Source of the DNA: a virus
IMG/VR virus record: IMGVR_UViG_3300035181_002344
Strand: one strand, 5' to 3'
DNA length: 64,000 nucleotides
A program made the position numbers and the translations under genes. This document shows, one piece after another, positions 11,598 to 59,246 of this stretch. Under the pieces are notes generated by a model, which saw only the letters and a list, made by a program, of their open reading frames with translations, ran no database searches and had not been told where the DNA came from. Position 1 is the first letter of the stretch. The number at the start of each line of letters is the position of its first letter.

Positions 11598-11649
11598 TTT
11601 TTATTCCTTATCTTTTATCCGCCGCCGATTCTCCCGCTTGGCGCGGTTT

Positions 11650-12189: not shown

Positions 12190-12221
12190 TCGGCATTTTT
12201 TATTCTCTTGCCAGGAGATCG

Positions 12222-12721: not shown

Positions 12722-12997
12722 CAGTATCTCGCTCTCTGTGCTAAGGTTTTATTTTCAGTCAGTCGCTCTCTATTCTAAGGTCACGCTTCAGTCAGTCGCT
12801 CTCTATTCTAGAGCTGTATCTTAGCCTGTTGCTCTCACTTCTTCAGTCCGTCGATCTCTATTCTAAGGTCTCGCCTTAGTCTATAGATCTCTGCTCATCA
12901 GTCAGTCGATCTCTGTTCTAAGGTTTTATTTTTTAGTATCTCGCTCTCTATGCTAGAGTTGTATTTTGGTCTGTCAGTATCTCGCTCTCTATGCTAA
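12722..12997 (+). repeat. array of nine imperfect direct repeats, consensus YAGTmwsTCGmTCTCTrTkCTArG
   Basis: units start at about 12722, 12756, 12789, 12822, 12844, 12877, 12899, 12934 and 12975. Confidence 0.85.
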
Positions 12998-19845: not shown

Positions 19846-20321
19846 TGGGTTTTAAATACAATGATAAAAGATATCAGATATGGCGTAATAAAGTTTTTAG
19901 AAGAGACAATTTCCAATGTCAATTATGTGGAACTAAAGGTGGGGCATTAAATGCTCATCATATTAAAAAGAAATCAGAGTATCCGCATCTTGCATATATA
20001 ACTACAAATGGAATAACTTTATGTACCAAATGCCATGCTGTCGTCACAAAGAATGAACAGATTTTTGAAAGATTTTTTGAGGCCATAATCAAAAAAATAC
20101 TTAGTTACGATTTGGTCTATCAATTTTTTTTCTGGCTAACAACAGTTAGACCTGATATAGTTAATGCTTTTAAGCAATATAATAAATGGGAAAAAATTCC
20201 CGCACATTTGGTAACGGAGATTACTAAGAATGCCAGAATCTCAAAATATAATAAAAGACGTATCGGATCCGCTCCTCGAACTGGAACAATACGAAAGCGA
20301 CCAAAAAAAAGAGACGCTTAA
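19845..20321 (+). CDS. HNH endonuclease (terminase-adjacent)
   Basis: RDNFQCQLCG...LNAHHI...NGITLCTKCH. Confidence 0.9.
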   Translation: MGFKYNDKRYQIWRNKVFRRDNFQCQLCGTKGGALNAHHIKKKSEYPHLAYITTNGITLCTKCHAVVTKNEQIFERFFEAIIKKILSYDLVYQFFFWLTTVRPDIVNAFKQYNKWEKIPAHLVTEITKNARISKYNKRRIGSAPRTGTIRKRPKKRDA

Positions 20322-37017: not shown

Positions 37018-39099
37018 ATGCCTGTATATCGTAATTTACCTGGTATCAGAGTATTTAAAGAAGACCAAAATCTTTTGGTTGCCGAAATGATACCTGGCGA
37101 GCTAACAGTCGTAATTGGCACTTCCCCAGCAGGACCGCGAGAACAGCTATATCTTGTTAGAGATCCACAAACAGCGATGTTTACTTTTGATCCAGAGGGA
37201 TCTCAAGAAGGAACTTTAATTCAGGGAATGCTTGAAGCTGGCGAATCCGGTTCGAGATATCTTGCCTTATTTAGAATCGGTTCTACCCCTGCAATCTTAG
37301 ATTTTGTAAATGGATATAAAATACAAGTCGAAGATGGAAGCTCAGTCAAAATATTTTACGATTTTTCTTCTGGTGCGCATGATCTTAAATTAACACATGC
37401 AGTAACTGGAGAAGTCGTATATGATAATATCAACGGTATTGATACCGGATTTGCTATTGTAGATTTTAATAAAGAAATAACAAACTCTGCCGTCTCCATC
37501 GGCACAGAGAGTAGCCCCGTTGTCTTAAGTTCTGTCAACACTGCAATTGGTGCCGCAAACAGCATCACATATGCAGCAGGTGCAAAAACAATCAGCTATC
37601 CATCTGCTGTTTTACCATTAGCTGCTGGTATGATAATAACAATTACCGGCGGAGATACTGCAGATGATGGAGATTATGAAGTCCTATATGTTAAAGACGA
37701 AAAAGCTACATTGGTTAGTAAAAAAGTTGGTGACAAATGGGTTCCATTTGATGGATTTACTGCCAAAAATGCTGACGATACAAAAGGACAGATTAAAACT
37801 CGTTATTTTGCTCAAAATGATGGTACAAAATTAACTCAAATGGAAATGTTTGAAGCTCTTGCTAAGGCATATTTTGAGTTAGAAAATATCCAATGTGATA
37901 TGGTAATACCAGCTAGTGTTTATGTAGACGCGCCTAATTTAGTAAATAATATTGGACAAATAGCCGTACCTGCTGAAGAAGATTTTTTAGGCATGGTTTA
38001 TCAATTTGAACATGAAGGTGAGTTATTCCACATATGGAAGACCGGGGCTAATGTCTCTGATAGAATTGTACCAAAACCATATGCTTTAGGTATAGATGGA
38101 GTTCATGCAGAAAAGTTAGTAGATGGTAACTATCCTTATGAAGTTATCATGAATGATACTCCGCTTTCAGGTTTAACCGAAAGCGATAAAATAGTTAAGT
38201 TTAATGAAGCAAATTTTGCTCATCAATTAGGCGAATATCTTTATGGTTTGTCGCTTAATCAAACTGAAGCTCTTGGTTCAATTGCTATGAGACCACCAAC
38301 ATCATTGGTTAAAAGAGAAGTTGTTAAATGGGTTGGAAAAGCTCCAATAACTGATGCTAATGGAAACATAACGGTCTCTGGAACTGGATTACTTGGTTAT
38401 AAATATATGGCTGGTTCTACTGGTGTTAAAGCTGGTTTTTACCATACAGCTACTGGATTTGTTGATGGTGATGCAGTTTTGGATCATACTGGCAAACCTG
38501 TAGATTTAGGTAAATATTTAGTGATTACTGCTCTTCCATTGATTCATACTGGAGCTGCAGCTAATACTGCTGCTGGATATTTAGGTGGAGCTGCTGCTGA
38601 TTACGCTGGATTTATCATGAGTCTTGATGAAAAAGATGCCCCAACAAATAAAAAAATGAAATCTACTCTATCCTTGCCAATTGCATTGCAATTAAAGAAT
38701 AGCTTGATTGATCAACTTGTTGGAACTCGCTACACAGTATTCGCATCATCTTTTGATAATTCTGTAAAAGTTGTAGATGCACCTACAGCTGCTAGACCAA
38801 ATAGTGATTATACTAGAGTACTTACCGTTAGAATAGTTGCACTTGCTATTGATATGGCAAGAAAGATTGCCGAACCTTTTATCGGCGGCTTAAATAATGG
38901 TGAGATTCGTAACGCTCTTGAAGAACAAGAAAATTCGATGCTTCATAATTTGAAACAATTTGGGTATTTGAATGCTGGTTTAGCTCAAGTGCGTGCTACA
39001 CGTGATCAAGAAATCAAAGGTGAAGGTATAATGAGATTAATCTTAAATGTACCTGGTGAATTGAGACAATTATATATTTATGTAAATTTAACTAAATAA
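37018..39099 (+). CDS. contractile tail sheath protein
   Basis: N-terminal LPGI..VIGTS..GP; C-terminal APTNK...TVRIV...FIG...VPGELRQLYIYV. Confidence 0.88.
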   Translation: MPVYRNLPGIRVFKEDQNLLVAEMIPGELTVVIGTSPAGPREQLYLVRDPQTAMFTFDPEGSQEGTLIQGMLEAGESGSRYLALFRIGSTPAILDFVNGYKIQVEDGSSVKIFYDFSSGAHDLKLTHAVTGEVVYDNINGIDTGFAIVDFNKEITNSAVSIGTESSPVVLSSVNTAIGAANSITYAAGAKTISYPSAVLPLAAGMIITITGGDTADDGDYEVLYVKDEKATLVSKKVGDKWVPFDGFTAKNADDTKGQIKTRYFAQNDGTKLTQMEMFEALAKAYFELENIQCDMVIPASVYVDAPNLVNNIGQIAVPAEEDFLGMVYQFEHEGELFHIWKTGANVSDRIVPKPYALGIDGVHAEKLVDGNYPYEVIMNDTPLSGLTESDKIVKFNEANFAHQLGEYLYGLSLNQTEALGSIAMRPPTSLVKREVVKWVGKAPITDANGNITVSGTGLLGYKYMAGSTGVKAGFYHTATGFVDGDAVLDHTGKPVDLGKYLVITALPLIHTGAAANTAAGYLGGAAADYAGFIMSLDEKDAPTNKKMKSTLSLPIALQLKNSLIDQLVGTRYTVFASSFDNSVKVVDAPTAARPNSDYTRVLTVRIVALAIDMARKIAEPFIGGLNNGEIRNALEEQENSMLHNLKQFGYLNAGLAQVRATRDQEIKGEGIMRLILNVPGELRQLYIYVNLTK

Positions 39100-39110: not shown

Positions 39111-39719
39111 ATGGCAGATTTAAAAACATATAGTTCATTCTCTGGTGCAGATATTACTGCTGTTATGGCCGGAAAACTATTTGCTACTTTGCAAGCGATC
39201 TCCTATTCTGTTACACGCGAAAAAGGCCCAGTTTACACAATGGGCTCTCCTGATCCGCGTGCTTTTGCTCGTGGAAAAAGAGCTATCGCTGGTACACTAG
39301 TATTTGTGACTATAGATAAATCATCGTTAATTGGAGGATTCCTTGAAGCTGATATGCCAGCAGACAACAAAAAGTTCTATGGCAAAAAAGTAGATTCTCG
39401 CGCATCTTATACAAATGTCGACACACAATTTGATAACACTACTTCTTTTGAAACTATATCTGGTAGTGATATTGAAGCAAATGTTGGAGCTGCTGCCGAA
39501 TATATTGATATCTACTATGCTGATCAAATACTTCCTTTTAATGTAAATTTATCTGCTGTGAATGAAGCTGGAGAAATTGCAAAGAAATCTATCATCGGCG
39601 TTGAATTAATGAACGAAGGTGGTGGAGTAAGTGTTGATGATTTAGTACTTGAAGAACAATATACCTACATATGTCGCTATATTACTCCATGGATGAAGGT
39701 CACTAGATCTAAATCTTAA
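39111..39719 (+). CDS. tail tube protein
   Basis: after the sheath; SFSGADI...LQAISYS..REK.PVY..G...RGKRAIAGTLVF. Confidence 0.75.
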   Translation: MADLKTYSSFSGADITAVMAGKLFATLQAISYSVTREKGPVYTMGSPDPRAFARGKRAIAGTLVFVTIDKSSLIGGFLEADMPADNKKFYGKKVDSRASYTNVDTQFDNTTSFETISGSDIEANVGAAAEYIDIYYADQILPFNVNLSAVNEAGEIAKKSIIGVELMNEGGGVSVDDLVLEEQYTYICRYITPWMKVTRSKS

Positions 39720-42281: not shown

Positions 42282-42854
42282 ATGAATGTTTTCGAGGCAA
42301 AAAGACGCTTCGGTACAATTTATATGATTGAGTTTGATGATGAGGCACGTGTTGTTTTTAGGCCGCTCTTGCATAAGGAATACAAATCTTATAGAGCGGT
42401 CCTAACCGCCATGCCGAACTATGAAGATTCAGCAATGGAGGATATATTTCTTAAATGCCTCATAGATATGACATATCCATATACTTTAGATGACGAAGAT
42501 AATCCTGTTGTTGATTTTGAATTATTGCCAGCTGGCGTAACTGATACCGTTGCTCGTTTTATATTTAATGTATCTGGTGCTGATTCACAAGATAAGTTTT
42601 TTAACGATCTTGCTGAAAGCAGAGTCTTTGCAAATTATGATCTTGAATATCGAGTATTTTCTATTATAGCCAATGCATTACGAGTTGATATTAGCAGTTT
42701 TGATGATTTAACATGGGAAGAAATACTTCGTCGTATTGCCCAAGCAGAATTAATATTATCGGGCAATATTCCTAAAATACCATTTTTACCTGCCGAACCA
42801 GAAGTAAAGAAATTAGATTTCGACGCAGATAACAAGGAAGAAGCTAAAAATTGA
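42282..42854 (+). CDS. putative tail assembly chaperone (paralogue)
   Basis: VVFRPLLHKEYK resembles the upstream gene. Confidence 0.55.
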   Translation: MNVFEAKRRFGTIYMIEFDDEARVVFRPLLHKEYKSYRAVLTAMPNYEDSAMEDIFLKCLIDMTYPYTLDDEDNPVVDFELLPAGVTDTVARFIFNVSGADSQDKFFNDLAESRVFANYDLEYRVFSIIANALRVDISSFDDLTWEEILRRIAQAELILSGNIPKIPFLPAEPEVKKLDFDADNKEEAKN

Positions 42855-45800
42855 GTCTTAGAGAAGACATAGAAAAACAAGAACATCAGAATTTTTCCAA
42901 AAGCCTTTCTGATTTAATGCTTACTGGTGCCGTTAATTTAGGTGCTTGGTATGCTTTTAATAAATATGCTGGTAGGGTTGAGGTTCCGAATGTTACTACT
43001 GGTAGTTTAAGGTTTATTGGGCTTCAATCTATAGGAGGACGTCCATGGTTTGAGGCCATGGGAAAAACAGCTGATAGCACTGCTAATTTACATGAAATTA
43101 TATTAAATGCTATTAAAGCTACAGAGGAAATGTTAAAAGTTCCTCGGGCTTTTTCTGCATATAATATAATGTCTGAGGGATATCTAAGAAATAACTTAGC
43201 AGAGTTAGAGCTTACGCAGCAAATGCTTCGCGGCCAAAGTCAATTCTTACGATCAATTTCTAATGGTAAGATTGACTATCGCATGCTTGAACAGGGGCTT
43301 AAGTGGAAAAATGGCAAGCTGTTTAATACTGCCGGCGAAGAGGTTCTGTCGAATGCCCGCCTTATGTTCAATTACTGGGGCATGACAGAAGATGCGTTGC
43401 GTGATAAAAAAATTGGTTACATATCAAGATATGCTCAAGCACTTTATCGTAATCGCGGATTAAAACCAGGCCCAACAGAACTTTTAGTTTATGGCGGACA
43501 GAAATGGTATCAGCCCTATATGCAAAAGGCAAATGCCATTGTCCGTGTTGGTGTTGAAAATTATCTTAAATTATTAGATGATCCATTTGAAGTTCTGCTA
43601 CGCCCGATAGAAAATGTCTTTGGTACAAGTAGTGCTATTCCAAAGTTTTTACGTAAAGGCTCCGAGTTTTATAATCGTATTGGTTTACGCAATATGTTTG
43701 GAGCTGGAGGCTGGCGTGTATTAGCTGAAGCTGATTCAACTTCTGCTTTATTGCGTAGGCATTTATTTAGAAACATGCTGCCTTCGGCATTTTTGTTCTT
43801 GGGTGCTATTCCGCTGGCAGATGAAATCCTTCGCAATACACCAATAATTAAAGATACACGTCTTGGTGGTGGTATTGGTGGTTTCTTTGCTAGTTTATAT
43901 CAAGATGTACGTAAAACTTATGCGAATATAAGTGATGCTCTTGGGCTGACATCGTATGCCAAAAAACAAAAAGAACAAGCTCCTGGTTCTACATCTGCAT
44001 TAGGATTACTTGCCTTCCCTGCTTCTTTAAGTATTGCTGCAACATCCGCTGCTGGCATACAGAATTTGATAGAAAAAGTGCCAGTTGGTACTAGTGGTGT
44101 TGCCCCGAAATATTTCAAAAATATCATTTCATCAATAGAAGCCAGTGATAATCTATTAAGCAAGGCATCTAAGGCTCTTAAATTAAATCAAGCTAGCAGA
44201 ACTGGTGCATATGGAATAACAGCTTTTGCTGCTGGTGCGTTATTAACACTTCCATTTTGGCCTGGAGTTTTTGGAAGTGAAAAAAGCTCAGAAGAATTAG
44301 AGCAAATATATTCTGGCGAACAATTAGTTCCTATCCGCCGAGGAAGATTCTGGGAATTTGGCATCACCCCTTATGAAGGCGATGAGATAAAGCATTATGC
44401 TCCGCATTGGACTGTAAGACTAATTACCGATGCTGCACGAAAGACTAAATTTGGACGCTTTTATGGCGATCCAATTGGTCGTATGTTACATAGGATCGTT
44501 GACCCTTACTTCCTTGAAAGGGAAATGGATCAAGAGAGACCTTATGTAGTTTGGGGACCTTCAGAACAAGGACTTGGATTTTTAGAAAAAGTTTTACAAC
44601 CAGTAAAAGAGATATTTAAGCCAACAATCGTTGCCCATCCAGAGGCTTTGGGTCAAGAGCCTCCAGGTTTATTAAAACGTGTTGGTCCAGAAGTTCCAGA
44701 ATCTTTGCAGGGCACTATCTATGAAACTAATACTCGTAATTGGGTTTCTACTCCACAATTACCTGATAACCTAAATTTATATGCATCGTCTACAGCTAAA
44801 TCTTTTACAGATACTTTAGGATTAGTAGGCTTTGCTTATAGTTCATTAGCGAATAATGTTATTAATGCTGGACAAGGATTAGGTGCGGAAGCTGTTTATG
44901 AAAGCTCTGGACGAATGTTTTCGCGTCAGAAAGCTTTCTGGGACCAAGAATTAGGTGGTATGTTTGGACTTAATGAATTTTATCGTAGATTAAATCCAGA
45001 TAGAGAATATGGCCCGGAATATATCTCGTCAGCAATAAGAAATACGCAGCCTTCTTGGATGCCTGAAGAGTTTCAATATGGCGATCCCTATGCTATGCCT
45101 CTGGGCGAAATGCGTGTGCCCGGCAGAGGCTATGAAGCATTACATCCAGAATTAGAAGGGATACCATATGAAGAGTATCCTTTAGTTCATAGATTAAATA
45201 TTTTACAAGATGTAGCACGCTTATCTCCTGCTTATTATAAAACTCTTAGTCAAGTCAAAAAAATAGCCGAAGCTGGCGATTTATCTTCTGACGAAGAGCA
45301 GATGTATAGAAATATATTAGCACGAGACGAAGAATATCGTAATGACGAATTAAATAGATTTGATCAAGCCGATGACAGCTTTTTCGGGCGATACTGGTTA
45401 GGCTTAAAAAAAATAGGCCGTTCATTACCAACTGAGCATCTTTATCCAATATCTCCTGCCCATAAATTTATGGGGCCTGGCACACCAGAAATGGATTATA
45501 AATCCTATGTGCTATTAGATTCTCCTTTTAAAAGTTGGTCTTCGCCAATTAGTGATTATATAGTACCTACATTTAATAGATTAATGGACGATATCACACT
45601 CGGCAACTATACTCCGCCTCGTACTACCCAACGAAGAGACATAGAAACTTATTTTCAACAGTTACAATTTGGTAAAAACCAACTCTTAAAAGAAAAAGCA
45701 GATGCTTTATATAATCAAGGAGATATTGAAGGAGCTAATTTCCTCCGTAGTGGTATTCGCAAAAGTATTTATGATCTTTCTCCATACGATGATATCGAAG

Positions 45801-46417
45801 ATTATAGAAATGTTTTATTACCATCAACAATGAAATATATATCTCCTATGGTTGATATTACTGATCAAGGGAGACGATCAAATATATTGCGAATGGTCGA
45901 TCCGACATCTCGTAGGATACTAAAATCTCAATGGCAAGTAACAGATTTACAAAGAGCTGGCAAATTAGAAGAAGCAGATGCTATAATGGGAAGTTTAAAG
46001 CCAAATACTGATGTGAGTTCGGATATTGTATTAAATACATTTGATCTTCCAGATAGAGATTTTACGGGATATGCCCCTGGTGTTGATTTAAATGCATTCA
46101 AGGTAAAAGTTGCTAATTCGCTTGGCCATAATATTAGAGATTTTAATTTATGGAAAGAAGATGAACGTCAAGCTCGTATTTTGGACATGATTAATAATGG
46201 CAGCCTTGCTGGTAATGATAAATATGAATATAAACCTCATAATAGAGAATTAGCGAAGAATCAGCTGCAAGAATATTTTAGAAAAATTGGTGCCACAGAT
46301 ATGCAAATTACCGCTCTTCCAACCAAAGGATACTCTACTGTTGAATTTCATGGTCGCGAAAATAATAACGACCGTATAAAAGAAGCAATGAGACAAGAAG
46401 GAATGATAGTTTATTAA
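42851..46417 (+). CDS. large virion protein, tape-measure/ejection-like
   Basis: 1188 aa with hydrophobic helices; follows the chaperones. Confidence 0.5.
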   Translation: MSLREDIEKQEHQNFSKSLSDLMLTGAVNLGAWYAFNKYAGRVEVPNVTTGSLRFIGLQSIGGRPWFEAMGKTADSTANLHEIILNAIKATEEMLKVPRAFSAYNIMSEGYLRNNLAELELTQQMLRGQSQFLRSISNGKIDYRMLEQGLKWKNGKLFNTAGEEVLSNARLMFNYWGMTEDALRDKKIGYISRYAQALYRNRGLKPGPTELLVYGGQKWYQPYMQKANAIVRVGVENYLKLLDDPFEVLLRPIENVFGTSSAIPKFLRKGSEFYNRIGLRNMFGAGGWRVLAEADSTSALLRRHLFRNMLPSAFLFLGAIPLADEILRNTPIIKDTRLGGGIGGFFASLYQDVRKTYANISDALGLTSYAKKQKEQAPGSTSALGLLAFPASLSIAATSAAGIQNLIEKVPVGTSGVAPKYFKNIISSIEASDNLLSKASKALKLNQASRTGAYGITAFAAGALLTLPFWPGVFGSEKSSEELEQIYSGEQLVPIRRGRFWEFGITPYEGDEIKHYAPHWTVRLITDAARKTKFGRFYGDPIGRMLHRIVDPYFLEREMDQERPYVVWGPSEQGLGFLEKVLQPVKEIFKPTIVAHPEALGQEPPGLLKRVGPEVPESLQGTIYETNTRNWVSTPQLPDNLNLYASSTAKSFTDTLGLVGFAYSSLANNVINAGQGLGAEAVYESSGRMFSRQKAFWDQELGGMFGLNEFYRRLNPDREYGPEYISSAIRNTQPSWMPEEFQYGDPYAMPLGEMRVPGRGYEALHPELEGIPYEEYPLVHRLNILQDVARLSPAYYKTLSQVKKIAEAGDLSSDEEQMYRNILARDEEYRNDELNRFDQADDSFFGRYWLGLKKIGRSLPTEHLYPISPAHKFMGPGTPEMDYKSYVLLDSPFKSWSSPISDYIVPTFNRLMDDITLGNYTPPRTTQRRDIETYFQQLQFGKNQLLKEKADALYNQGDIEGANFLRSGIRKSIYDLSPYDDIEDYRNVLLPSTMKYISPMVDITDQGRRSNILRMVDPTSRRILKSQWQVTDLQRAGKLEEADAIMGSLKPNTDVSSDIVLNTFDLPDRDFTGYAPGVDLNAFKVKVANSLGHNIRDFNLWKEDERQARILDMINNGSLAGNDKYEYKPHNRELAKNQLQEYFRKIGATDMQITALPTKGYSTVEFHGRENNNDRIKEAMRQEGMIVY

Positions 46418-46429: not shown

Positions 46430-49400
46430 ATGAGTGATAAACAACCTGGCGTTTTAGAATCATTAGGCATGGTTTCTGGCCTTGCTGCTGCTGGCTATTT
46501 GGTAAAAGAAATGGCTGGTGCTCGGACAAATATAAAAGAAGGCACAGAATTATTTAAGCAAGCAAGAGAGACATCAAAAATTAAAGCCGCTCAAAAAATA
46601 GCCCAAAAGAATATGACTAAATCCATACTTCCATGGTCTGAATTGGGTTTGGACAAATTGCCTAATATGCTTAAAGGAGCGCCAGTTGCAACAACCGTTT
46701 CTAATGCAAAAGATGTAGGAAGAGAGCTTGCCCGTGTTTTTGGTAATGGCGGACTATCTGAACATATGCAATTTTTAAATGAGCTTATAGAAATATCTAA
46801 AACTTTAACATCTCATAATCGCCAGCATACATTTAAGGTGTTGCAGCATATTGGAAATAATGCTTCTGTTCAGCTTATAATGAACCATGCTGGAGGCGAT
46901 CTAAGTATTAATTTTGGCATGATATCTAAGGGCGGCCGTTATGCGAGAACAAATTATGGATTAACATATGGGGTTGCTCCCAAATTTCTTGATCCAATGA
47001 CATACCAAAAATTAATGGCTAATCAAATTAAAACAGCCGACGAATTATATTCTGGTATTCTTGATATTAATACATTTATAGCCCGAGGTGTTCACGAAGA
47101 ATTAAAACAAAATGGCGTAGGCAATAGTTTACGGCGTGCTGTGGATATGGCAGCTTTAGCAGAACAAAACGTTGTTACAGTAAGAGTGCCAAATGTCTCT
47201 AACCCAGCTTTTCAAAGGGAAGCCGCCAGAGTTATTCCTTATCAGCCTACCGAAGAGGGATTAAAATTACTCACTCCCGCACTTGATTATACAACAGTTC
47301 AGCAAATGTGGCAAAATATTGAAAACTTAGAAGGTATTGATTTAGGCAAATTATTATTTGCTCGTTCAGAAAACGAAAAAGCATTTGGTGTATTTAATGA
47401 TCCGCATTCTTCATTTATCCATTCTATGAGCAATACTTCTTTAGAATCAAATAAAGCCATGCGTCAAGCTATTGGTAAAGAAACAATGATAGGTGGTGAT
47501 TTAGCAGCGGCTGGCAGATATGGTCAATTGGAAATAGCCGGTGGAATGGGTAATATAGCATCAATTCTTACATACACAGATACTGGTGATTATTGGAGAA
47601 GCTTAGGAATGGATGAGACATTAATTGATCAGGTTCTAGAATCAGGCTTTGGTTTAGAAAAAGGCGTTGGATTTGGATTAAAAGGCCGTGAAGGTGCTAT
47701 CATTACTGAAGGATTGGCCAAAAGCGATATGATAGATATCGTAACCCATAATGTTGATTTAACTGAAGCTCTTGATAGAGATCGAGTTGCTAAGTTTGTT
47801 GAAGATATCACTGCTCAATATATTGATAAAATCGCCATACAAAATACTGACAATCAAAATGTTATTGAATATACAAAGTCATTAATGTCTAAAAAACATT
47901 CTACGGTTATTAATGCAAATAAAGTTGCCAGACAACAAAAGAAATATAGTGCTATCAAAGATGTATTAACTGATACAGAAGTTAATCAACTCGCAGAGTT
48001 ATTTGGTGTTAAAGGCGATAGACGCTCTGTTCTATCTGCTATGAAATTTAAAAATATCCGTAGAGCCCTTAATACTTGGAAGAGAACAAAAGACGTCGAG
48101 AGTATCAATAAATTTAATTCCATTGCGAGCAATATATTTTCTAAAATTACCAAATTTGATACTGGTCATAAAACAATAATTAGCTCTGTTTTAGGCTCTA
48201 TTGGTGGTTTACATCGCAAGGGCGTTCTTACAAATACAGAAACTGGTTCTATTCGTTTTGGCGAATATGGCCAAGAAACAATTAGTGACATTATTTCTGG
48301 TGGTGATGTTCCTGGATTTAGAATTGTTGGTAGAGCAAAAAATAAGCTTGGCGATTATTTTAAAACATGGTTTGCTAAAAAACAAACTGCGGCACAAATT
48401 ATTTCTAATAGCGATGCTGAAAGGTTAATGAGAAATACATTTGGACTGCAAAGATTTATTCAAACTTCTAGTAATCCAGCTAGAGCTGCAAGATTGGTTA
48501 GTGAAAGATTGAAACGCGGACATTTTAGTAAACTTCAGAAAATAGTTGATTCATTTGGCGACGAATATAATTCTTTAAATTTAGATACCAGCAAAATGAT
48601 TTTTGCATCAGAAGGATATCGCTCTAATTCTCTTGGTGTTGTATCCTCTGTTTTAGAAGAAACTCTTATTAAAGATTTCGGTCAATCTCCAGAAGAATTA
48701 GCTAAATTGTCTCCCACTGAAATACTTGATTTTGCTAAGCAGCTCTATGAAAAAAATCGCGGCAATGCAAAATATGATGTAATGCTTGGCTCTATTATAG
48801 ACGAAAACAATCCTGTATATATGCCGGGTATAGGACATAACCCATATAGCATTGGAGAAGCTGGTTCTTTAGCTGGTCTAAAAATGAACAAAAATGTGAA
48901 CTTTTCACCAGAAATGGCCGAAAAATATGCTCAGCTAGGTATGCCTTCAATTTCTGATGCCATTATTAAGAATATTAATATGGAGGAATATCAACAAATA
49001 TATGATGCTTATGCGCCATTATCTAATCCTAGCTTAATTAAAGATGCCTTAGTTATCAATCAGGATGATATTTTAGCAGATAGAGAGCTATTTAATGTAA
49101 TGTTTAATAGTGACGATCCGAGAAAAGTGAGAAATGCTTTTGTTCAAGCAGCAAAGCAATTAGGTATAAAAGCCGCAGATAACGTTTCTGATAAAACAAG
49201 ATTGCTGATTAAGCTTAGCAATGATGCTACAATACCTATCTTAGATTTTACATCTAATTCATATGTTGGTATTGTTAATCCAATTTCTGGAGAGGAAACT
49301 GGGACTCAGTTGATCAGAAAACAATTATCTACATTAACAAAAAGGGTTATTACAGCTAACCCTGGAGATGAATTCAATGCTGCTTATGATGAATTGGTTA

Positions 49401-51124
49401 CCGGCGTAGGAAAGATATTATTCGATAAAAACATATTTACTAAGCAACCAATGAAGGGTGCCATATTAGAAGCTCGTCCTGGTCTTATTTTTAATACATC
49501 ATCCTTAGAAGCAATAGAAACCAATGCTAAACGCATGAATAAAATGGGTGCATTAGCAAATGTTATGAATAAATATGGTATTACCGCGACAGAACAAGGC
49601 ATAGATTTCGAAGCCTTTAGAGGTCGCTCTCTTGGAATTATGTCAGATGCCGATTTTTTTGATTTTATTGGTGGATCTGATTTTTATCAAAATAAGTTAC
49701 GTGCAGCTGGCTTGAATCCCAAAACCTCTGGGAATAAATTAAAAAGCTTTCAAAGAAGCCTTCTTTCTGAGCTGCATAATGCAAATAAGCAATATGCTTT
49801 TGGGGGACGCCATCCAGTTGGATATGGAGCTTGGCAAATTATAGCTGGCGAATCATTACTTAGGGATGTTTATACAGATGTCTATGGGCTTGGTTTAAAG
49901 GAAGCTGAGAATTTATCACAAAATATTATTCGTAAGGGTGGTCTTTATTTATCAGAATATTTGGAAACCTTATTAACAGCCGACTATGATCGAGATCAAA
50001 TTGTAATGGCTTTGGCTAATCAGCAGATGGGTAAGGAGATAGAATCTGCCCTAACAAATGAAGAATTTATTAAAAATGTTAGTGGCAAAGGTATTAAGGT
50101 TAAAAAAGCAAGCCATGGATCTATTGCTGAATTAATGGAAAAGCTAAGTCCATCTGAAGTCGCTAGAGCACACATTGATACATTAAATGAATCTATTGCA
50201 TTCTCTGCTGGCGTTGGTCCAATATCAAATAAATTGCGCAACCTAAGGCGATCTTATGGAGACGATATAGACAGAAAAATATCATATATGATTGATGTAT
50301 TACGTGAAAGCTCTATTGGTTCTAAGGGTTTCGTTGGTAAATCTGTAGAAAATTTAGAAACATTTAAATCAATATTCGATAGAGGCATGGACGTAGACAC
50401 GAGAGCGTCAACGTTAAAAAGTATTGTTTTGCATGGAGATGAAACTAACAATGCATTATATAACATTTTCAAAGATGTGAATGATGATTTCTATAAAGAT
50501 ATTATTAAGAATTATGATGAATTTATGGGTTCTCCAGAGGGTAAAATTGCCTCGCTTCAAAATACTATCCGCTATACAGACAAGTTTACTGATAAAGAGC
50601 TTAAATATTGGACAGAATTTGCTCAAAGTATGAGCGTTAAAAGAAATATTGATGCAGAAATTGGTTCGCTTGTTGATGTTGCTAATCAATCTGCGTCTAA
50701 ACTTAGCAAAGCAAGAAATATAGCCGCAGAGGTTGGTGAAACTGGATTTACCAAGGCTATTAAATCAAAGCCATTTTTGTTGCTTGCAGGAGGAGCTATC
50801 ACTTTAGCAATGTTAAAACCTGCGGATAATTCAATTAAACATCAAGATATACGCTCTGAATCTAAAATAAAAAAAGCACCAACTGCTGCCGAACCAATTG
50901 ATCCTCAAACTGGTATGGTCTATAAGCCTCAGCCACAAGCATATAATTTTCAAGTGAGAGGCAAAACTCCTCGTAATACAAGTATAGAGCAAATACGTAA
51001 CGATATTAATGGTTTTGGTATTCCTTTTGGTGGCACAGTGGTTAATAGAAGTCCTGGCGCTGACGCCTCTTATGTGCGTCAATTGCAAGAAACAAACGAT
51101 TCTTTAATGTGGAATAATGTATAA
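46430..51124 (+). CDS. large virion protein, candidate virion-packaged two-barrel RNA polymerase
   Basis: 1564 aa; GGRHPV (49808), then GGLYLSEYLETLLTADYDRDQIVM (DxDxD at 49982), resembling beta' RQP...NADFDGDQM. Confidence 0.55.
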   Translation: MSDKQPGVLESLGMVSGLAAAGYLVKEMAGARTNIKEGTELFKQARETSKIKAAQKIAQKNMTKSILPWSELGLDKLPNMLKGAPVATTVSNAKDVGRELARVFGNGGLSEHMQFLNELIEISKTLTSHNRQHTFKVLQHIGNNASVQLIMNHAGGDLSINFGMISKGGRYARTNYGLTYGVAPKFLDPMTYQKLMANQIKTADELYSGILDINTFIARGVHEELKQNGVGNSLRRAVDMAALAEQNVVTVRVPNVSNPAFQREAARVIPYQPTEEGLKLLTPALDYTTVQQMWQNIENLEGIDLGKLLFARSENEKAFGVFNDPHSSFIHSMSNTSLESNKAMRQAIGKETMIGGDLAAAGRYGQLEIAGGMGNIASILTYTDTGDYWRSLGMDETLIDQVLESGFGLEKGVGFGLKGREGAIITEGLAKSDMIDIVTHNVDLTEALDRDRVAKFVEDITAQYIDKIAIQNTDNQNVIEYTKSLMSKKHSTVINANKVARQQKKYSAIKDVLTDTEVNQLAELFGVKGDRRSVLSAMKFKNIRRALNTWKRTKDVESINKFNSIASNIFSKITKFDTGHKTIISSVLGSIGGLHRKGVLTNTETGSIRFGEYGQETISDIISGGDVPGFRIVGRAKNKLGDYFKTWFAKKQTAAQIISNSDAERLMRNTFGLQRFIQTSSNPARAARLVSERLKRGHFSKLQKIVDSFGDEYNSLNLDTSKMIFASEGYRSNSLGVVSSVLEETLIKDFGQSPEELAKLSPTEILDFAKQLYEKNRGNAKYDVMLGSIIDENNPVYMPGIGHNPYSIGEAGSLAGLKMNKNVNFSPEMAEKYAQLGMPSISDAIIKNINMEEYQQIYDAYAPLSNPSLIKDALVINQDDILADRELFNVMFNSDDPRKVRNAFVQAAKQLGIKAADNVSDKTRLLIKLSNDATIPILDFTSNSYVGIVNPISGEETGTQLIRKQLSTLTKRVITANPGDEFNAAYDELVTGVGKILFDKNIFTKQPMKGAILEARPGLIFNTSSLEAIETNAKRMNKMGALANVMNKYGITATEQGIDFEAFRGRSLGIMSDADFFDFIGGSDFYQNKLRAAGLNPKTSGNKLKSFQRSLLSELHNANKQYAFGGRHPVGYGAWQIIAGESLLRDVYTDVYGLGLKEAENLSQNIIRKGGLYLSEYLETLLTADYDRDQIVMALANQQMGKEIESALTNEEFIKNVSGKGIKVKKASHGSIAELMEKLSPSEVARAHIDTLNESIAFSAGVGPISNKLRNLRRSYGDDIDRKISYMIDVLRESSIGSKGFVGKSVENLETFKSIFDRGMDVDTRASTLKSIVLHGDETNNALYNIFKDVNDDFYKDIIKNYDEFMGSPEGKIASLQNTIRYTDKFTDKELKYWTEFAQSMSVKRNIDAEIGSLVDVANQSASKLSKARNIAAEVGETGFTKAIKSKPFLLLAGGAITLAMLKPADNSIKHQDIRSESKIKKAPTAAEPIDPQTGMVYKPQPQAYNFQVRGKTPRNTSIEQIRNDINGFGIPFGGTVVNRSPGADASYVRQLQETNDSLMWNNV

Positions 51125-51133: not shown

Positions 51134-54100
51134 ATGGCAGATAATCAAGAACATATCTATAAAACATTAGAACAACAGGAAAAAGATTATTTTAACGAAA
51201 TCCACGCATATCTCTTTGGGATTAATCGTTCTGTTGATTTAAATAAATGGCCTAATTTTCTAAATACAGAAAGCTATATATATAAATATCGTGATTATAA
51301 TCAGCGTCTAATGCAAAAAATTAAAGATCAGCCTGGCGAGTTTATGATTAATGATATTTATCTTACAATTCCACCAGAAGCTATTAGTGTCGAGATTAGA
51401 AATAATACCATTGATATACCAATTTTACGTACATCGTCAAGCGTTAAATTAAATACAGGACATGGTGCTATTCAAGTTAGTATTTCTGCTGTTTTTACAG
51501 ATAATGAATTGCTTGGGGTTACGCTAGAAGAAGAATTAAAATATAAGCTTGTTCCACTTCTTACGCAAATGAATGTGATACCATTCGTGCATGTGAGAAA
51601 TAAATTTCTCAGAGAAAAAATCATTACCAATTATGCATCTATAATTAATAATGGTACTAAAGAAGTTATCAAAGAAGATAATACTTCTGGAGAAATATTA
51701 TTAACTTATGTCAGTCATTCAATAGCCACAGATCCAGAATTGCCACGTACTATAAGAGTGGAATTTAGCTTTCTTGTATTTAATTATCGTCCTTATATAT
51801 TGGATGTTGCTTATCCATATTATTATCAATTCACCGACAAAAAATCACTTGATACATTATATAGATTAAATGATAAACTATTAACTTTAGCAACTGTAAA
51901 AACTCCAGATTTATCTCTCCCCTTTTATGAATTTTATGCTCGAGAGTTTAAAAAACTTCAAGAAAATGGCGTGCTATTTTATGAGCATGATGAATTTTTA
52001 ACTACTAAAGCCGAATTGGGCGGCTATGATGATGATATAATGCAGATAGGTTTTTATCAGTATATCGAAGTTCCAAACCATTTATTAGACCCATCAATGC
52101 TCGATAAAGTTAAATCAATGGAAAAAAGCACTACATATGCTACTGTAGAAGATGAATATGGAGCGTTTATATCACGAGCTGGATTAAAACCATGGCAACG
52201 AGTTATGGCTGCCGATTCTGAGATTACTAGCCATTTTAAGGCTGCACATAATCGTACTTCTCCGCATAAAGGTGTTGATTTAAAACCGAAAGGTTCCACT
52301 TCTTCTACACCAAAGATATTGGCTGCTCATGGTGGAAAAGTTACAATGGGCTATCAACCACCAATTAATGACAAAAATGGGCCGCAACATGGTGGTGGTC
52401 ACTATATTTTTATTACAGATTCTGGGGCGGGTATCACAACTAAGTATCTGCATTTATCTCAGCAATTAGTGAAAAATGGTGATATTGTTAAGCCAGGACA
52501 AGTTATTGGTATAATGGGAAATTCTGGTTCTAATCCTGCACGCGGTACAATGGGAGCACATCTTGATTTTAGAATTATTGTTCCTGAAGGCGTTGCTAAG
52601 AACTTTGGGGATTATATTAAAAGCGGTAACGATTATTATGTAAATCCAGAAACATTTGATATTGAAAGGTATATTAATAATCATGATAATAAAGCGACGC
52701 CAGTTAATATTCCTAATAGACAAGAACTTAAAGACGTCGCTAATCAAAAGAAAGTTAATATTATTAAAGATCCTAATAAAGTATTATCGAACAAAGTAGC
52801 GCCACAAAGCAAAACAGAACTAAAGGCATATGAACAAGCAATTCTTGATTATATAAATACTCTGATTAAAAAAAATATCCATATCGAATATGTGCCAAGA
52901 GTTGGAGTCGATAATATTTCATATATACGTATACCAAGAATGGTCAGTATTAGACGCACCACGGGATTCACATTAACAGATATACAATATCTTGGCTATC
53001 ATCAACCAGCTATCGTTCCAATTGCAGGACATCGTCTTGCTACCCATCAATATATGGGCGGGCGTGTAAAACGTATGGCTTTAACGTTTATTGTTAGCGA
53101 AAATTATGGAGATTTTGAGTTACAAAAGCTACTTTCTGTTATTAATATATCAAATTATAATGCTATTCGCTTTAAGGAAATTGCTGCTTATGATGGGATT
53201 GAAATAAATCAGCCATTTATTAATACGATTTGTGGTGGTAAAAATTTTGTCATCGACAATATTAATATCACAACACATCCCGACATACCAGAAGGATCTA
53301 TTGTCACTATATCATTAACGGATTTTACTGGTGCTAAAGAAGTTGCACAGCGTGTGTTCGATATGGAACAATTGGCTCCGAACATGGATGTTACCGATTA
53401 TTATAAAACGCTTGCCAAAGAAATATTTTCTAAGGTTAAGCCAACCATAGAAGTGAATCCTAAAAAAGCAAAAAGTGAGTTTGTTGAAGGAGTGCTAGCT
53501 GGAATTGTGTATTCGCAAACAAATGATGTAGGTGCGATATCAAATTTATCTAAGCCATATAATAATTTCGAAAGTATTTATCTAGTTCCACAGAATCTAC
53601 AGCAATTTAACGATAATCCACAGCTAAAACAGCAAATTACAGAGCTGTTCGAGACCATTAATGAAGATTTGTCTAAATCGTGGCTTCAAAAGGTATTTAA
53701 TCTTTTTGCAAATAATGATGCAGAAAATCGTAATCCATTATCTGATGATTATGAAATATTTGAATATTTGACTATTGGTAAAAGTGTTAAAAATGCCGCT
53801 GATAGAACTTTAATCAAAAGCTTATTTTTTCCTAATAATAAAACTGGCGACAATAGTTTAACAAATAGTATAAACAAATGGCTCGACAAGCATTCTCATT
53901 ATGCATCTAATTCTAAAGATAGAAAACGCCAAAATTACTTTCCGAAAACAGCCGAAAAATATTCAGATGATGTTAAAAATTATTCTGCAAAAATATTATG
54001 GCCAGCATATATAGATTTTAATCTTCCGCCGACAATTAATCCAGATTATTATTTTTATCAGCCAACTAAGAATGCTCTTATTGACCCTAAAGAAAAGCGT

Positions 54101-56755
54101 ATTACAGAAAATGCTTTAGCCGCAACGATGAAAAAACATGATGCTTATATTAATTATTTTCGATCGCCATCTGAAAATGAAGCTATCCCTGTTGTTAAAG
54201 ATATGGAAACTTTATTATCAACGACAGATGATATATCTTTGGCCATTAATAAAAAGTCTCCTGTTACTTTTCAAGATATAGGCCTATCTGGTATGGGCTT
54301 ACAAGCTAGTAACTTACATTCTAGTAAGATCATTCTTGATTACAATGTCAATGAAACAGATAAAGACAACCCAATTAAACTTGAAGTTAATGTTAGCGAA
54401 CGCAACGAAGATAAAAGAGACCCTGATTATGAAAGGGTTGGAGAATTATATTTCTTCGATCATATAGAGTATACCAAGCATTTTTTATTCGATATAGATA
54501 ATACAGTTATTTCCGAAACGTCAGATTTTATATATGCTTTCCCCGTCTATAAAATATATTTTATTGAGGAGGACGATCAGGAATTTATGTATCCTTTTAG
54601 AATGCAAGATTTTAATGACCTTTTTGGTATAAATGCAGTACAAGAAATAAGATATGCTGAGATTAAAGATCAGCCAGCAGATTTACTTACTGTACGTTTC
54701 GTAGATATGACTGGTAAATTTACCTCTATTCGCTATAAACACTATGGGCATATAGAGGGTTCTAAGAAAAGCAGTACCATTGATTTTAATGTAGAAAATA
54801 ATATCAAAGGTCTCGTACTTAAAGAAGGAACTCGTGTGCAGTTTAGAGTTGGATATTCTAATAATATTAATAAATTGCCAATTCGTTTTAATGGATATAT
54901 AGTTTCTATTGGTGGCGAAGAAAATGAATTTGAAATGATGTGCCAGTCCTATGGTGCAGAATTAGTTCATGCTATTAAAGCTCCAAGCGAAGTAACACAA
55001 ATAGCTACATTTAATGCGGATACACATGATATTCTGCAATGGTGTATATCTCAGCCTGAGGTTAAGCATTTTGGTAGATGGAAAATGAATAATACGAGTA
55101 ATTTGACATTTTCGGATTCCACAAAAGGTACCAATTGGTTTAGATATAAAAGAATGGATCCAATGGGTCATGAATCAACATCATGGACATGGACAAAAGA
55201 TGAAGGAGAATTAAATTTTCTCTGTCCAGTCGAGAGTGATTTGCAAGGATTTAAAAACCTGCTTATTAATTTAAAGGCTGGCGGCCCACTTGCTGTATGG
55301 AAGGCTGTTTTTACATCTGTAAGTATGATTCCTGGAGCTGGTTCCTTGGCGAAAAAGTTTCTTGATTTCATAGGCGTTGGATACAGCTTTGGAAGTTTAA
55401 CAGATCTCTTATGGAGTAGATATTGGATAAAAAATACAACCGTATGGCAAATAGTTGATGAATTAACTTATCGTTATCCTGAATATATAGCCAAAGTTTT
55501 TCCTTATGATGACCGTGTAACATTATATTATGGCCCACGCCATGGTCTTTATTTTGCTACTCAATGGAATATTGGACAACTTGAAGATATTCAAGAAGCA
55601 AAGAATAAGCTAAATCAACTGCAAAATGATATCGACTGGAATAAAAAACAACTTGAGTCATACAAAGATACAGATATACAAAAAGCTTATACGTATGAAA
55701 ATTGGCTGGAAAAAGAATATCAGACAACTTACAAAACAAATGCCGTTATAGATGATTTAAGAAATAAGCTTAAAAAACCCACAACACACTATCATTTATT
55801 TGATTCTAATTCTAATTTGATTAGTAACCAAATAAAAGCAGATATTAAAGATGTATATACTGAAATTATGCTTGGTTATGGCACTGCAGATAATGATAAT
55901 GCTAAAAAAATGGCCAATGGCGAGATAGTAGAACCCTCCACAATAAATATGAGATTAAATAGCTATCTGCAACTAGAAGATATTAAAACAAAATATGTAC
56001 AATTTCCGAATGCTTCAAATATAGAAAATGCTTATATATATGGAACTAAAGTTCTTTTTCAGGAAGCCGAGAAACTCTATAAGGGTACAATTTCTGTTCT
56101 TGGCAATCCAGATGTTACTACTTTTGATAATGCATATGTAATTGATGATGCAACACAAACATATGGTCCTATTCGCGTAAGATCTCATGTCCTAAGCATT
56201 GCACCTGGTGAGGGTATGATATCAACCATTGAACCGGATATGCGTGTAAATTATAATCAGCTTAGTTTAATGTCAGTTCAAGATTATTCAGATTATGTTT
56301 GTAGCGCTAAAAGTGGCTTGCAAAGAATGAAATCTGGAGATTTTAATTGGATGAACTTGGGAATGGACGAATATGATCATGTAGCTATGAATGACTTTTT
56401 AAATGGCCGAACGTTACTTCCATCAGTTGGAGCTATTACTACAGGGATTGGTGCTGCCGTAGCTCTTGCAACTGGGGCGATTAGTGCAACCACTGGTTTT
56501 GTTGTACTTCCTGCTTTCTATTTGTTACTCGCCCAGATTTCTTATAAAGCTGTTTTAGCCGATAGCCACAGAGACCCGATTTATGTATCTCCATTAGTTC
56601 GCAGGGGAGCGCCATATTTATATGGACTTTCTACTTATAAAGTTGGCGGTTATGTGCAATGGACAAAAGATACGTGGGCTCAGGATATGAAGGATATTGG
56701 TGCGGCTGTCGAAATTCTAAGGGATTCAATTAGTACATTATTTGGCGAAAATTAA
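51134..56755 (+). CDS. baseplate hub-like virion protein with M23 peptidase domain
   Basis: HKGVD, GGHYIFI, YLHL, IGIMGNSG, HLDF (M23); GTRVQFRVGY...FNGYI hub-like region. Confidence 0.75.
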   Translation: MADNQEHIYKTLEQQEKDYFNEIHAYLFGINRSVDLNKWPNFLNTESYIYKYRDYNQRLMQKIKDQPGEFMINDIYLTIPPEAISVEIRNNTIDIPILRTSSSVKLNTGHGAIQVSISAVFTDNELLGVTLEEELKYKLVPLLTQMNVIPFVHVRNKFLREKIITNYASIINNGTKEVIKEDNTSGEILLTYVSHSIATDPELPRTIRVEFSFLVFNYRPYILDVAYPYYYQFTDKKSLDTLYRLNDKLLTLATVKTPDLSLPFYEFYAREFKKLQENGVLFYEHDEFLTTKAELGGYDDDIMQIGFYQYIEVPNHLLDPSMLDKVKSMEKSTTYATVEDEYGAFISRAGLKPWQRVMAADSEITSHFKAAHNRTSPHKGVDLKPKGSTSSTPKILAAHGGKVTMGYQPPINDKNGPQHGGGHYIFITDSGAGITTKYLHLSQQLVKNGDIVKPGQVIGIMGNSGSNPARGTMGAHLDFRIIVPEGVAKNFGDYIKSGNDYYVNPETFDIERYINNHDNKATPVNIPNRQELKDVANQKKVNIIKDPNKVLSNKVAPQSKTELKAYEQAILDYINTLIKKNIHIEYVPRVGVDNISYIRIPRMVSIRRTTGFTLTDIQYLGYHQPAIVPIAGHRLATHQYMGGRVKRMALTFIVSENYGDFELQKLLSVINISNYNAIRFKEIAAYDGIEINQPFINTICGGKNFVIDNINITTHPDIPEGSIVTISLTDFTGAKEVAQRVFDMEQLAPNMDVTDYYKTLAKEIFSKVKPTIEVNPKKAKSEFVEGVLAGIVYSQTNDVGAISNLSKPYNNFESIYLVPQNLQQFNDNPQLKQQITELFETINEDLSKSWLQKVFNLFANNDAENRNPLSDDYEIFEYLTIGKSVKNAADRTLIKSLFFPNNKTGDNSLTNSINKWLDKHSHYASNSKDRKRQNYFPKTAEKYSDDVKNYSAKILWPAYIDFNLPPTINPDYYFYQPTKNALIDPKEKRITENALAATMKKHDAYINYFRSPSENEAIPVVKDMETLLSTTDDISLAINKKSPVTFQDIGLSGMGLQASNLHSSKIILDYNVNETDKDNPIKLEVNVSERNEDKRDPDYERVGELYFFDHIEYTKHFLFDIDNTVISETSDFIYAFPVYKIYFIEEDDQEFMYPFRMQDFNDLFGINAVQEIRYAEIKDQPADLLTVRFVDMTGKFTSIRYKHYGHIEGSKKSSTIDFNVENNIKGLVLKEGTRVQFRVGYSNNINKLPIRFNGYIVSIGGEENEFEMMCQSYGAELVHAIKAPSEVTQIATFNADTHDILQWCISQPEVKHFGRWKMNNTSNLTFSDSTKGTNWFRYKRMDPMGHESTSWTWTKDEGELNFLCPVESDLQGFKNLLINLKAGGPLAVWKAVFTSVSMIPGAGSLAKKFLDFIGVGYSFGSLTDLLWSRYWIKNTTVWQIVDELTYRYPEYIAKVFPYDDRVTLYYGPRHGLYFATQWNIGQLEDIQEAKNKLNQLQNDIDWNKKQLESYKDTDIQKAYTYENWLEKEYQTTYKTNAVIDDLRNKLKKPTTHYHLFDSNSNLISNQIKADIKDVYTEIMLGYGTADNDNAKKMANGEIVEPSTINMRLNSYLQLEDIKTKYVQFPNASNIENAYIYGTKVLFQEAEKLYKGTISVLGNPDVTTFDNAYVIDDATQTYGPIRVRSHVLSIAPGEGMISTIEPDMRVNYNQLSLMSVQDYSDYVCSAKSGLQRMKSGDFNWMNLGMDEYDHVAMNDFLNGRTLLPSVGAITTGIGAAVALATGAISATTGFVVLPAFYLLLAQISYKAVLADSHRDPIYVSPLVRRGAPYLYGLSTYKVGGYVQWTKDTWAQDMKDIGAAVEILRDSISTLFGEN

Positions 56756-58031: not shown

Positions 58032-59246
58032 ATGGCATTTTTTTCTAAAGATCCAAATACAATATTGCAGCAGTCTCTCGATTTTATGCGCGCAAATACT
58101 GCTCTTACATCAGTTGGCCCTGGTTCTAAATATCGTGCTTTATTAGAGATTATGAAGCAAGAGCTTGGTGAAGCTTATAGTACATTCGATATCAATCAGG
58201 CAATTGGATTTATTTATGGAGCTTCCGATAAATATCTTGATTATATTGGTGATATGTTTGGTATGCAAAGGTTTTCGGCTACAAGAGTTGAAATATCTGC
58301 TGCTTCTAAAATAATCAAATTTTATGTTCCGAGCGGTTATACATTTGGTGGAATAAATTCCGGAAATGATATCACCATACCCGCTGGAACCACAATATAT
58401 GGCTATAAAAATGATACGACAATTGAATATTATGTATCTGAAGATACAGTTCTACCAAAAGATAAAAATGAAATATACGTTGCTGCTAAAAGTGCTGGTA
58501 GTGGTGCTTCTTTTAATATTCCTTCTGGGATATTAATATATCATAAATTCACCGATTATACAGAAACAGCAAAAGGGTTGCTTCTTGTTACAAACATATC
58601 ATCAATAGAAAGCGGTCTCGATGCTGAATCTGATGATAATTTTAGATATAGAATTATTAATCATTATTTATCATCTCAAAATGCAAATGAAGTTGCCTTA
58701 CGTATGGCGGCTTTAGAAGTTCCTGGCGTTGCTGATGTTCGTTATTTTAATAATAGCCAAGGCTTGGGTACCGCAACTATCGTTATTAAATCAATAGTTT
58801 TACCAATGCCTAGTGATTTGCCAGATAAAGTATTAGCTAATGTCGAAAAAAAAGCATCTGCAGGTATAAAGGTAATAATTGAAAAACCTGTGGAAATATA
58901 TTTTTCCTTTGATATTAAAATTACATATACACGACCACTTTCTATTGACGAAAGAGTTTCTTTACAATCTGGATTAAATGCTTATATTGGAGATTATATT
59001 AACAATTTAGACGTTGGTGAATCTTTTAGCATTAATACATTGGCAAACGATATTATTTCATATTCTCCGTTAATAAAAACAATTGGTTCACCGGGAAGAT
59101 TTTTTGATCGCATTTATTTATACAAAGAATTACTACCGGATAAACCAAAAATAAAACGCGATATTACAAATGGATATGTAACTGGGTTAAATGAAAAGCC
59201 TGTTTTAGCAAATGTCGGCGATATAATAGCCGTTAATTATTTATAA
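58032..59246 (+). CDS. baseplate J-like protein
   Basis: YLDYIG, ITIPAGT, GLDAESDDNFRYRI, ALEVPGVADV. Confidence 0.88.
   Translation: MAFFSKDPNTILQQSLDFMRANTALTSVGPGSKYRALLEIMKQELGEAYSTFDINQAIGFIYGASDKYLDYIGDMFGMQRFSATRVEISAASKIIKFYVPSGYTFGGINSGNDITIPAGTTIYGYKNDTTIEYYVSEDTVLPKDKNEIYVAAKSAGSGASFNIPSGILIYHKFTDYTETAKGLLLVTNISSIESGLDAESDDNFRYRIINHYLSSQNANEVALRMAALEVPGVADVRYFNNSQGLGTATIVIKSIVLPMPSDLPDKVLANVEKKASAGIKVIIEKPVEIYFSFDIKITYTRPLSIDERVSLQSGLNAYIGDYINNLDVGESFSINTLANDIISYSPLIKTIGSPGRFFDRIYLYKELLPDKPKIKRDITNGYVTGLNEKPVLANVGDIIAVNYL

Follow-up and report, generated by a model that had tools for sequence, protein, structure and literature searches.

We present here an analysis of P0001, a 1564-amino-acid (aa) protein encoded on the plus strand at positions 46430 to 51124 of a 64,000-nucleotide (nt) stretch of DNA, hereafter the window, taken from IMG/VR virus record IMGVR_UViG_3300035181_002344. 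The window is a portion of a large uncultured tailed phage and has a G+C content of ~35%. P0001 is probably a very diverged single-chain two-barrel RNA polymerase (RNAP) in a tail-borne protein, which would be carried in the particle, ejected, and start transcription. The conserved residues, a predicted beta'-type barrel, and the orthologous synteny of the gene are the directly established part of this reading. The gene and its features are as follows.

46430 to 51124, plus strand: P0001, 1564 aa, the middle of three giant genes; candidate virion single-chain two-barrel RNAP (open reading frame, homologues, and synteny)
46448 to 46504, plus strand: conserved hydrophobic Gly/Ala-rich N-terminal segment, residues 7 to 25 (G13 and G22 in 13 of 15 sequences)
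48287 to 48382, plus strand: candidate beta-like active-site loop with D620, K645, and K651, including a KxWGxxK motif in a strand-rich stretch (from the alignment)
49442 to 50089, plus strand: predicted beta'-like double-psi beta-barrel (DPBB), residues 1005 to 1220
49808 to 49816, plus strand: R1127-H-P1129, equivalent to Rpb1 R446/P448 (R in 14 and P in 15 of 15 sequences)
49982 to 49996, plus strand: D1185-Y-D-R-D1189, candidate Mg-binding triad
50747 to 51121, plus strand: C-terminal domain, residues 1440 to 1564, where the family is best conserved (8 of the 14 invariant columns)
50771 to 50815, plus strand: hydrophobic segment, residues 1448 to 1462 (from the sequence; flanking K1445 and L1462 conserved; a low-confidence helix in the model)

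The first-pass annotation, made from the sequence alone, had pointed to an RHP motif at 49808, a DxDxD motif 58 codons later, and a weaker beta-like stretch near 48345, and all three were recovered. R1127 starts at 49808 within GGRHP (49802 to 49816), DYDRD occupies residues 1185 to 1189 (49982 to 49996) at the expected 58 codons past that Arg, and KLGDYFKTWFAKK starts near 48344, with KTWFAKK at 48362 to 48382. An exhaustive HMMER search with residues 401 to 1564 produced 15 cluster representatives, namely, 14 distant relatives, all from metagenome assemblies and 17 to 32% identical to the query, and one 104-aa fragment identical to P0001's own C-terminus. P0001 and its 14 relatives form a shallow alignment of 15 sequences in which 14 of 1564 columns are invariant, and P1129, D1185, D1187, and D1189 are four of these. 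The annotation had made its case depend on conservation of the DxDxD motif, and all three Asp are indeed invariant in 15 of 15 family members; the beta-like lysines K645 and K651 are likewise present in 14 of the 14 sequences that cover their region. R1127, K645, and K651 are each conserved in at least 90% of the alignment. One DxDxD has a chance expectation of 0.29 in a protein of P0001's size and composition; the motif alone therefore proves little, and it is the conservation that carries weight.

Eight residues are invariant in every two-barrel polymerase according to Ruprich-Robert and Thuriaux (PMC2919709). The yeast versions are R446, P448, and D479/481/483 of Rpb1 and D837, K979, and K987 of Rpb2, and those of QDE-1 are R962, P964, D1007/1009/1011, D709, R738, and K743 (PMC2919709). 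The P0001 family retains seven of the eight in a QDE-1-like arrangement, the spacings of D620/K645/K651 and R1127/P1129/D1185-1189 resembling those of D709/R738/K743 and R962/P964/D1007-1011. K645/K651 were assigned as the basic pair (Rpb2 K979/K987; QDE-1 R738/K743) by pattern and by their position between predicted strands. We consider it quite likely that P0001 holds a genuine polymerase-type active site.

Residues 401 to 1564 were modelled with AlphaFold2 from the 15-sequence alignment. The mean predicted local distance difference test (pLDDT) score was 63.9, with many blocks, the catalytic region included, at 78 to 88. An all-helical, tape-measure-like structure, which the first-pass annotation had named as the outcome contrary to its proposal, was checked for; the modelled part is predicted to be mixed alpha/beta, with a DPBB that aligns to the beta' catalytic barrel. 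The 50 best Foldseek matches in the PDB were all RNAP beta' chains, those of phage AR9 and plastid enzymes among them, and no match to the PDB fell below E 0.01. The beta' matches extend over 138 to 146 aa at 13 to 18% identity; generic DPBB domains (p97-N, designed barrels, and expansins) were nearly equal in score, over 83 to 108 residues at 6 to 12% identity. Counted inward from where the aligned ranges end, rather than read from a residue-level alignment, DYDRD comes to lie about one residue or less from beta' D460-D464. The predicted order of elements (RxP, strand, insertion, strand, short helix, DxDxD, strand) is that of beta', gp96, and gp64, the last two being the phage P23-45 RNAPs described below. 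The barrel is followed by a 37-residue helix (1243 to 1279) and a conserved LPExxIGxK motif (1291 to 1299), and no fold match reached either. The earlier claim of a two-barrel enzyme thus stands for the predicted beta'-type barrel; the fold of the second barrel did not emerge from either of the models made.

The second line of evidence is gene order, for which the two giant neighbors of P0001 are needed.

42851 to 46417, plus strand: 1188-aa conserved protein with three hydrophobic segments, upstream of P0001; orthologue of ME3_35 and 0305phi8-36 gp145
51134 to 56755, plus strand: 1873-aa protein with an M23 peptidase (Pfam PF01551, 3.8e-14), downstream of P0001; orthologue of ME3_37 and 0305phi8-36 gp147 (baseplate hub)

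Every relative's contig examined keeps the same order, which runs from sheath, tube, and small genes through a protein of ~1170 to 1210 aa, the P0001 homologue, and a protein of 1770 to 1950 aa with an M23, lysozyme, or SLT domain to the baseplate. In local tblastn searches, the terminase, portal, sheath, and tube of the window matched both Acinetobacter phage ME3 and Bacillus phage 0305phi8-36, the head protein matched ME3, and the baseplate J protein matched 0305phi8-36. Judged by these sequence matches, the phage is kin of ME3 and 0305phi8-36. The 1188-aa gene matched ME3_35 (7e-49) and gp145 (9e-13), and the 1873-aa gene matched ME3_37 (7e-29) and gp147 (4e-10); of the three giants, only P0001 gave no detectable match to these two phages by local tblastn. 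Because both flanking giants are orthologous, P0001 is the positional orthologue of ME3_36 (1603 aa) and gp146 (2537 aa).

That position bears on what P0001 does in the tail. The annotation of gp146 reads [quoted passage not shown], gp145 is annotated as a virion protein, and Hardies et al. assigned gp146 as the tape measure mainly from a correlation with tail length and gp147 as a gp27-type hub (PMC2147016). A single gene separates P0001 from the chaperone-like genes, as is also the case in 0305phi8-36. The earlier placement of the gene between a tape-measure-like gene and the hub stands insofar as it lies between the ~1188-aa gene and the peptidoglycan-hydrolase-bearing giant; comparison with 0305phi8-36, however, suggests that P0001 itself, not the upstream gene, fills the slot annotated as tape measure. 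Packaging of P0001 in the virion is probable, given this synteny and the mass spectrometry of its motif-less positional orthologue gp146.

In ME3, the slot protein ME3_36 (locus L007, 33172 to 37983) has REP at 1174 and DHDQD at 1217, in a context and relative place that match P0001. The second-best viral fold match to the P0001 model was a BFVD model from phage ME3 (A0A172Q021; E 2.5e-6), which, from its length alone, we infer to be ME3_36, as an 802-aa second piece of a protein of ~1603 aa. ME3_36 retains the signature and gp146 is without it, so by sequence the lineage seems to have either acquired or lost a polymerase-like site. That the slot protein of the whole contractile-tailed lineage, this metagenomic family and cultured relatives such as ME3 included, is an injected two-barrel RNAP is possible, and we put it somewhat short of even.

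Several results weigh against the polymerase reading of P0001, the first being that the searches made, by sequence and by profile, tied it to no known RNAP. Pfam, PHROGs, and NCBIfam returned nothing useful for it, and PF05183 (the YonO/RNA-dependent RNA polymerase [RdRP] family) did not match P0001 even at E up to 10. PDB sequences yielded nothing to phmmer with P0001 or to hmmsearch with the family profile. When 50,697 GenBank phages were searched by tblastn with P0001, its barrel region, P0016, and P0017 as queries, nothing useful was found, nor did a word-indexed protein search with P0001 and the family alignment yield anything of use. As a single-protein query, P0001 found no relative among IMG/VR loci, and its ESM Atlas score of 0.80 was uninformative. 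Alignment of the family by hhalign with P23-45 gp96 (residues 1 to 1200), gp64, and P0002, the left-arm protein introduced below, gave probabilities of at most 0.2. A hidden Markov model of the family, run against ME3_35 to ME3_37 and 0305phi8-36 gp145 to gp147, gave no match beyond a very weak hint (4.4 bits, E 0.013 among 6 sequences) between the C-terminal domain of P0001 and the C-terminus of gp146.

The reading is weakest at the second barrel. Around K645/K651 the chain is rich in strands, yet neither model reaches a pLDDT of 50 there; a model made specifically of residues 561 to 1003 was worse in this stretch, and its fold search was empty. At the position of the fourth catalytic Asp, D620, which lies 25 residues before K645, 8 of 14 sequences have Asp, and in the other 6 it is replaced by Asn (4), Gly (1), or Ser (1). 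Finally, gp146 (locus L009, 16623 to 24236), which alone among slot proteins has virion proteomics, has no credible RxP...DxDxD. Not every slot protein therefore carries the signature, and packaging of the motif-bearing form is extrapolated.

Some of these points would suit a tape measure or ejection protein that makes no RNA and in which the DPBB is a relic without catalysis or serves a structural role: the slot is annotated as a hypothetical tape measure in 0305phi8-36, whose orthologue is without DxDxD, the termini of P0001 are its most conserved part, and the second barrel is not demonstrated. We nevertheless regard this explanation as unlikely. Relic active sites decay, yet RxP, DxDxD, and both lysines are among the few conserved columns at 17 to 32% identity.

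Were P0001 an active two-barrel polymerase left out of the virion, it would be a late-operon product working in the cell as a late or replication-linked enzyme. This has in its favor that the virion evidence comes only from the motif-less gp146, and it is a shade less probable than a relic barrel. It leaves the fixed place of the gene, between the tail chaperones with a virion protein and the baseplate hub, unaccounted for across very diverged phages, and the conserved hydrophobic N- and C-terminal segments would be superfluous in a soluble enzyme; moreover, an early-arm polymerase candidate distinct from P0001 is already present in the phage.

The superfamily also includes QDE-1-type RdRPs and archaeal PolD (PMC10770324, PMC2919709), and the present evidence does not fix template and substrate, so an RdRP, a primase-like enzyme, or a PolD-like DNA polymerase deserves mention. 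We hold such a chemistry to be very improbable, as phi14:2 gp66 and P23-45 gp96, the members known from phage virions, have been characterized as DNA-dependent RNAPs (PMC10770324); no PolD-specific elements were seen, though no search was aimed at those. Equally improbable is a cell-wall-acting DPBB of the RlpA, expansin, or MltA-3D type that aids passage of the tail through the envelope, because the beta' matches are longer and of higher identity than those to generic DPBB domains, RxP...DxDxD followed by a hydrophobic strand is a polymerase signature, and a wall hydrolase (M23) is encoded by the next gene.

If P0001 is the virion polymerase that we favor, it would be a structural protein of the tail lumen, or one that is ejected, in a large phage with a contractile tail from the ME3/0305phi8-36 lineage. 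Residues ~600 to 1300 would form the diverged single-chain two-barrel RNAP, in which the beta'-like barrel (1005 to 1220) would hold the Mg-binding triad D1185/D1187/D1189 and the R1127-x-P1129 pair, and a beta-like loop ~540 residues upstream would supply K645, K651, and usually D620. The conserved termini would assemble P0001 into the tail, in the slot annotated as tape measure in relatives. Of these, the N-terminal hydrophobic segment may contact the tail lumen or membrane, and the C-terminal domain (1440 to 1564) is possibly the hub- or tail-binding end; hydrophobic segments 7 to 25 and 1448 to 1462 are both below the Kyte-Doolittle threshold of 1.5. Contraction of the sheath would eject P0001, and the first-entering genes would be transcribed without the host polymerase. 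Those genes would probably include the leftward operon with P0002, which would then take over. Beyond the conserved residues, the predicted barrel, and the synteny, we infer the fold of the second barrel, catalytic activity, packaging and ejection, the genes transcribed, and the order of the cascade.

The proposed second enzyme is encoded in the leftward arm.

4582 to 7206, minus strand: P0002, 874 aa; probable non-virion single-chain two-barrel RNAP (motifs and ESM Atlas look-alikes)

The first-pass annotation had taken a left-arm protein for a YonO-like enzyme, and this is borne out in part. P0002 has motifs of both barrels, with LKAGNSIGKG at residues 265 to 274, in which the two lysines are 7 apart (8 for K1065/K1073 of the beta basic loop), GKYP at 456 to 459, and DGDGD at 492 to 496. 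Its ESM Atlas neighbors are RdRP/YonO-type clusters, named RNA-dependent RNA polymerase and some carrying PF05183, at a score of 0.93 and TM of 0.41 to 0.52, which amounts to a lead. P0002 has no match in Pfam, none to 0305phi8-36 gp99 by BLASTP, and no signal against all GenBank phages. Within P0002, residues 456 to 469 (window 5800 to 5841, minus strand) show Lys-Tyr-Pro in place of the Arg-x-Pro reported as invariant in two-barrel polymerases.

A comparable arrangement is known from phage P23-45, where the tape-measure-fused virion two-barrel RNAP gp96 transcribes pre-early genes including that of a second, non-virion two-barrel RNAP, gp64 (PMC10770324). RNAPs of the gp96 type are found in the Thermus phages P23-45, P74-26, G20c, and TSP4 (Chaban et al. 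2024, PMC10770324). Since the P23-45 cascade is published (PMC10770324), two single-chain two-barrel polymerases acting in a cascade are not new in kind. P0001 resembles gp96 in being a single-chain RxP...DxDxD protein whose tail-module gene occupies or adjoins the tape-measure slot, in having a hydrophobic segment and a metallopeptidase nearby, and in showing no sequence similarity to other RNAPs past the motifs; the layout of gp64 in a leftward early arm and gp96 in a rightward tail module mirrors that of P0002 and P0001. The differences are considerable, however. No homology between P0001 and gp96 was detected (hhalign probability 0.1), and the tail is contractile here and that of a siphovirus in P23-45. 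The core lies in the first ~1100 of 5002 residues of gp96, compared with ~600 to 1300 of 1564 in P0001. Tape measure, membrane segments, and metallopeptidase share one chain with the N-terminal polymerase in gp96, whereas M23 is encoded here by the next gene. The loop is DFDGD in gp96 and DYDRD in P0001, the lysines of P0001 are 6 apart, and its activity and packaging are only predicted.

The podovirus protein phi14:2 gp66 is about 2180 aa long and probably travels in the head together with other cargo. Encoded by a crAss-like phage (PDB 6VR4), it is a large virion-delivered single-chain two-barrel RNAP (PMC10770324). P0001 would be of the same large single-chain two-barrel type and is likewise unrecognized by sequence searches; gp66 differs in being a separate protein, and the PDB sequence searches with P0001 gave no match to it. 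With the YonO (SPbeta)/QDE-1-type RdRP family PF05183, which includes 0305phi8-36 gp99, P0001 would share a minimal single-chain two-barrel architecture, but YonO-type enzymes are non-virion, and their look-alike here is P0002, not P0001. The positional orthologue gp146 differs from P0001 in its length of 2537 aa and lack of a catalytic signature, and neither it nor ME3 gp36 is similar to P0001 in sequence. For 0305phi8-36, only the YonO-like gp99 was listed by Iyer et al. (PMC7824862). In our literature search, no paper reported a polymerase at this position in ME3- or 0305phi8-36-like phages or described gp146 or ME3 gp36 as one. To our knowledge, experimental proof of two-barrel RNAPs delivered with the virion is limited to crAss-like phages and P23-45-like Thermus phages, apart from the multisubunit enzymes of PhiKZ- and AR9-type jumbo phages.

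If the lineage-wide proposal for the slot protein is true, delivering a polymerase through the tail lumen would be ancient and common rather than peculiar to Thermus siphoviruses, and the slot protein would have gained or lost catalysis repeatedly, as 0305phi8-36 is without the triad. Should P0001 represent a third, sequence-unrelated family, located in the tail operon of contractile-tailed phages, host-independent early transcription would be commoner than genome annotation suggests. A rule for recognizing such enzymes would follow, namely, RxP...DxDxD plus a lysine pair inside giants annotated as "tape measure" or "hypothetical". The mechanical question of how a polymerase of >150 kDa sits in and passes the tail tube would also be sharpened. 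The idea is directly testable, since gp36 of the cultured relative Acinetobacter phage ME3 carries a like signature.

The upstream 1188-aa protein is far better conserved than P0001 among three shared relatives (39 to 48% versus about 17 to 30% identity). Its three hydrophobic segments lie at residues 309 to 474. It had no family or PDB sequence match, and a PDB profile search with its alignment was also empty. One homologue of this protein (locus L004, 4801 to 9495) contains an intein of ~375 aa, with Cys first, His-Asn last, and Ser next, which sits exactly in the invariant PGRGY/(E/S)ALHPELEG site (window equivalent, ~45133/45134); the Pfam Intein_splicing match was flagged as weak, and that to LAGLIDADG was faint. 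This placement hints that the invariant PGRGY site is functionally important. Prompted by the intein at PGRGY, the upstream gene was considered as a source of the second barrel, and nothing for or against this was found.

The remaining landmarks of the window are a leftward block, separated by a 2-kb divergent gap from a long rightward block, and the genes of the latter. In the rightward block, the tube genes are followed by small chaperone-like genes and then by the three giants of 1188, 1564, and 1873 aa.

198 to 11597, minus strand: leftward gene block
20230 to 22329, rightward block: large terminase
27715 to 29421, rightward block: portal
32400 to 33674, rightward block: major head protein
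37018 to 39099, rightward block: tail sheath (PHROG 16991, E 1e-63)
39111 to 39719, rightward block: tail tube, plus a tube paralogue
58032 to 59246, rightward block: baseplate-J-like gene

The divergent gap contains seven same-strand copies of a 23-bp motif with the consensus CAGTnnnTCGmTCTCTrTkCTAr, at 12722 to 12997 with a spacing of 33 to 55 bp. The copies, of which chance alone would give none, are confined to this gap; origin iterons or an array of phage-specific promoters are both possible readings. An 893-aa protein encoded at 15144 to 17825 matches, in its C-terminal part, PHROG 1706 ("CRISPR/Cas system associated", 8e-11) and a RecE-like exonuclease family, and it has no match in Pfam. 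Between the leftward genes, a ~99-nt element occurs three times (window 8444 to 9582) and a GC-rich element of ~65 nt occurs four times (window 8545 to 12201).

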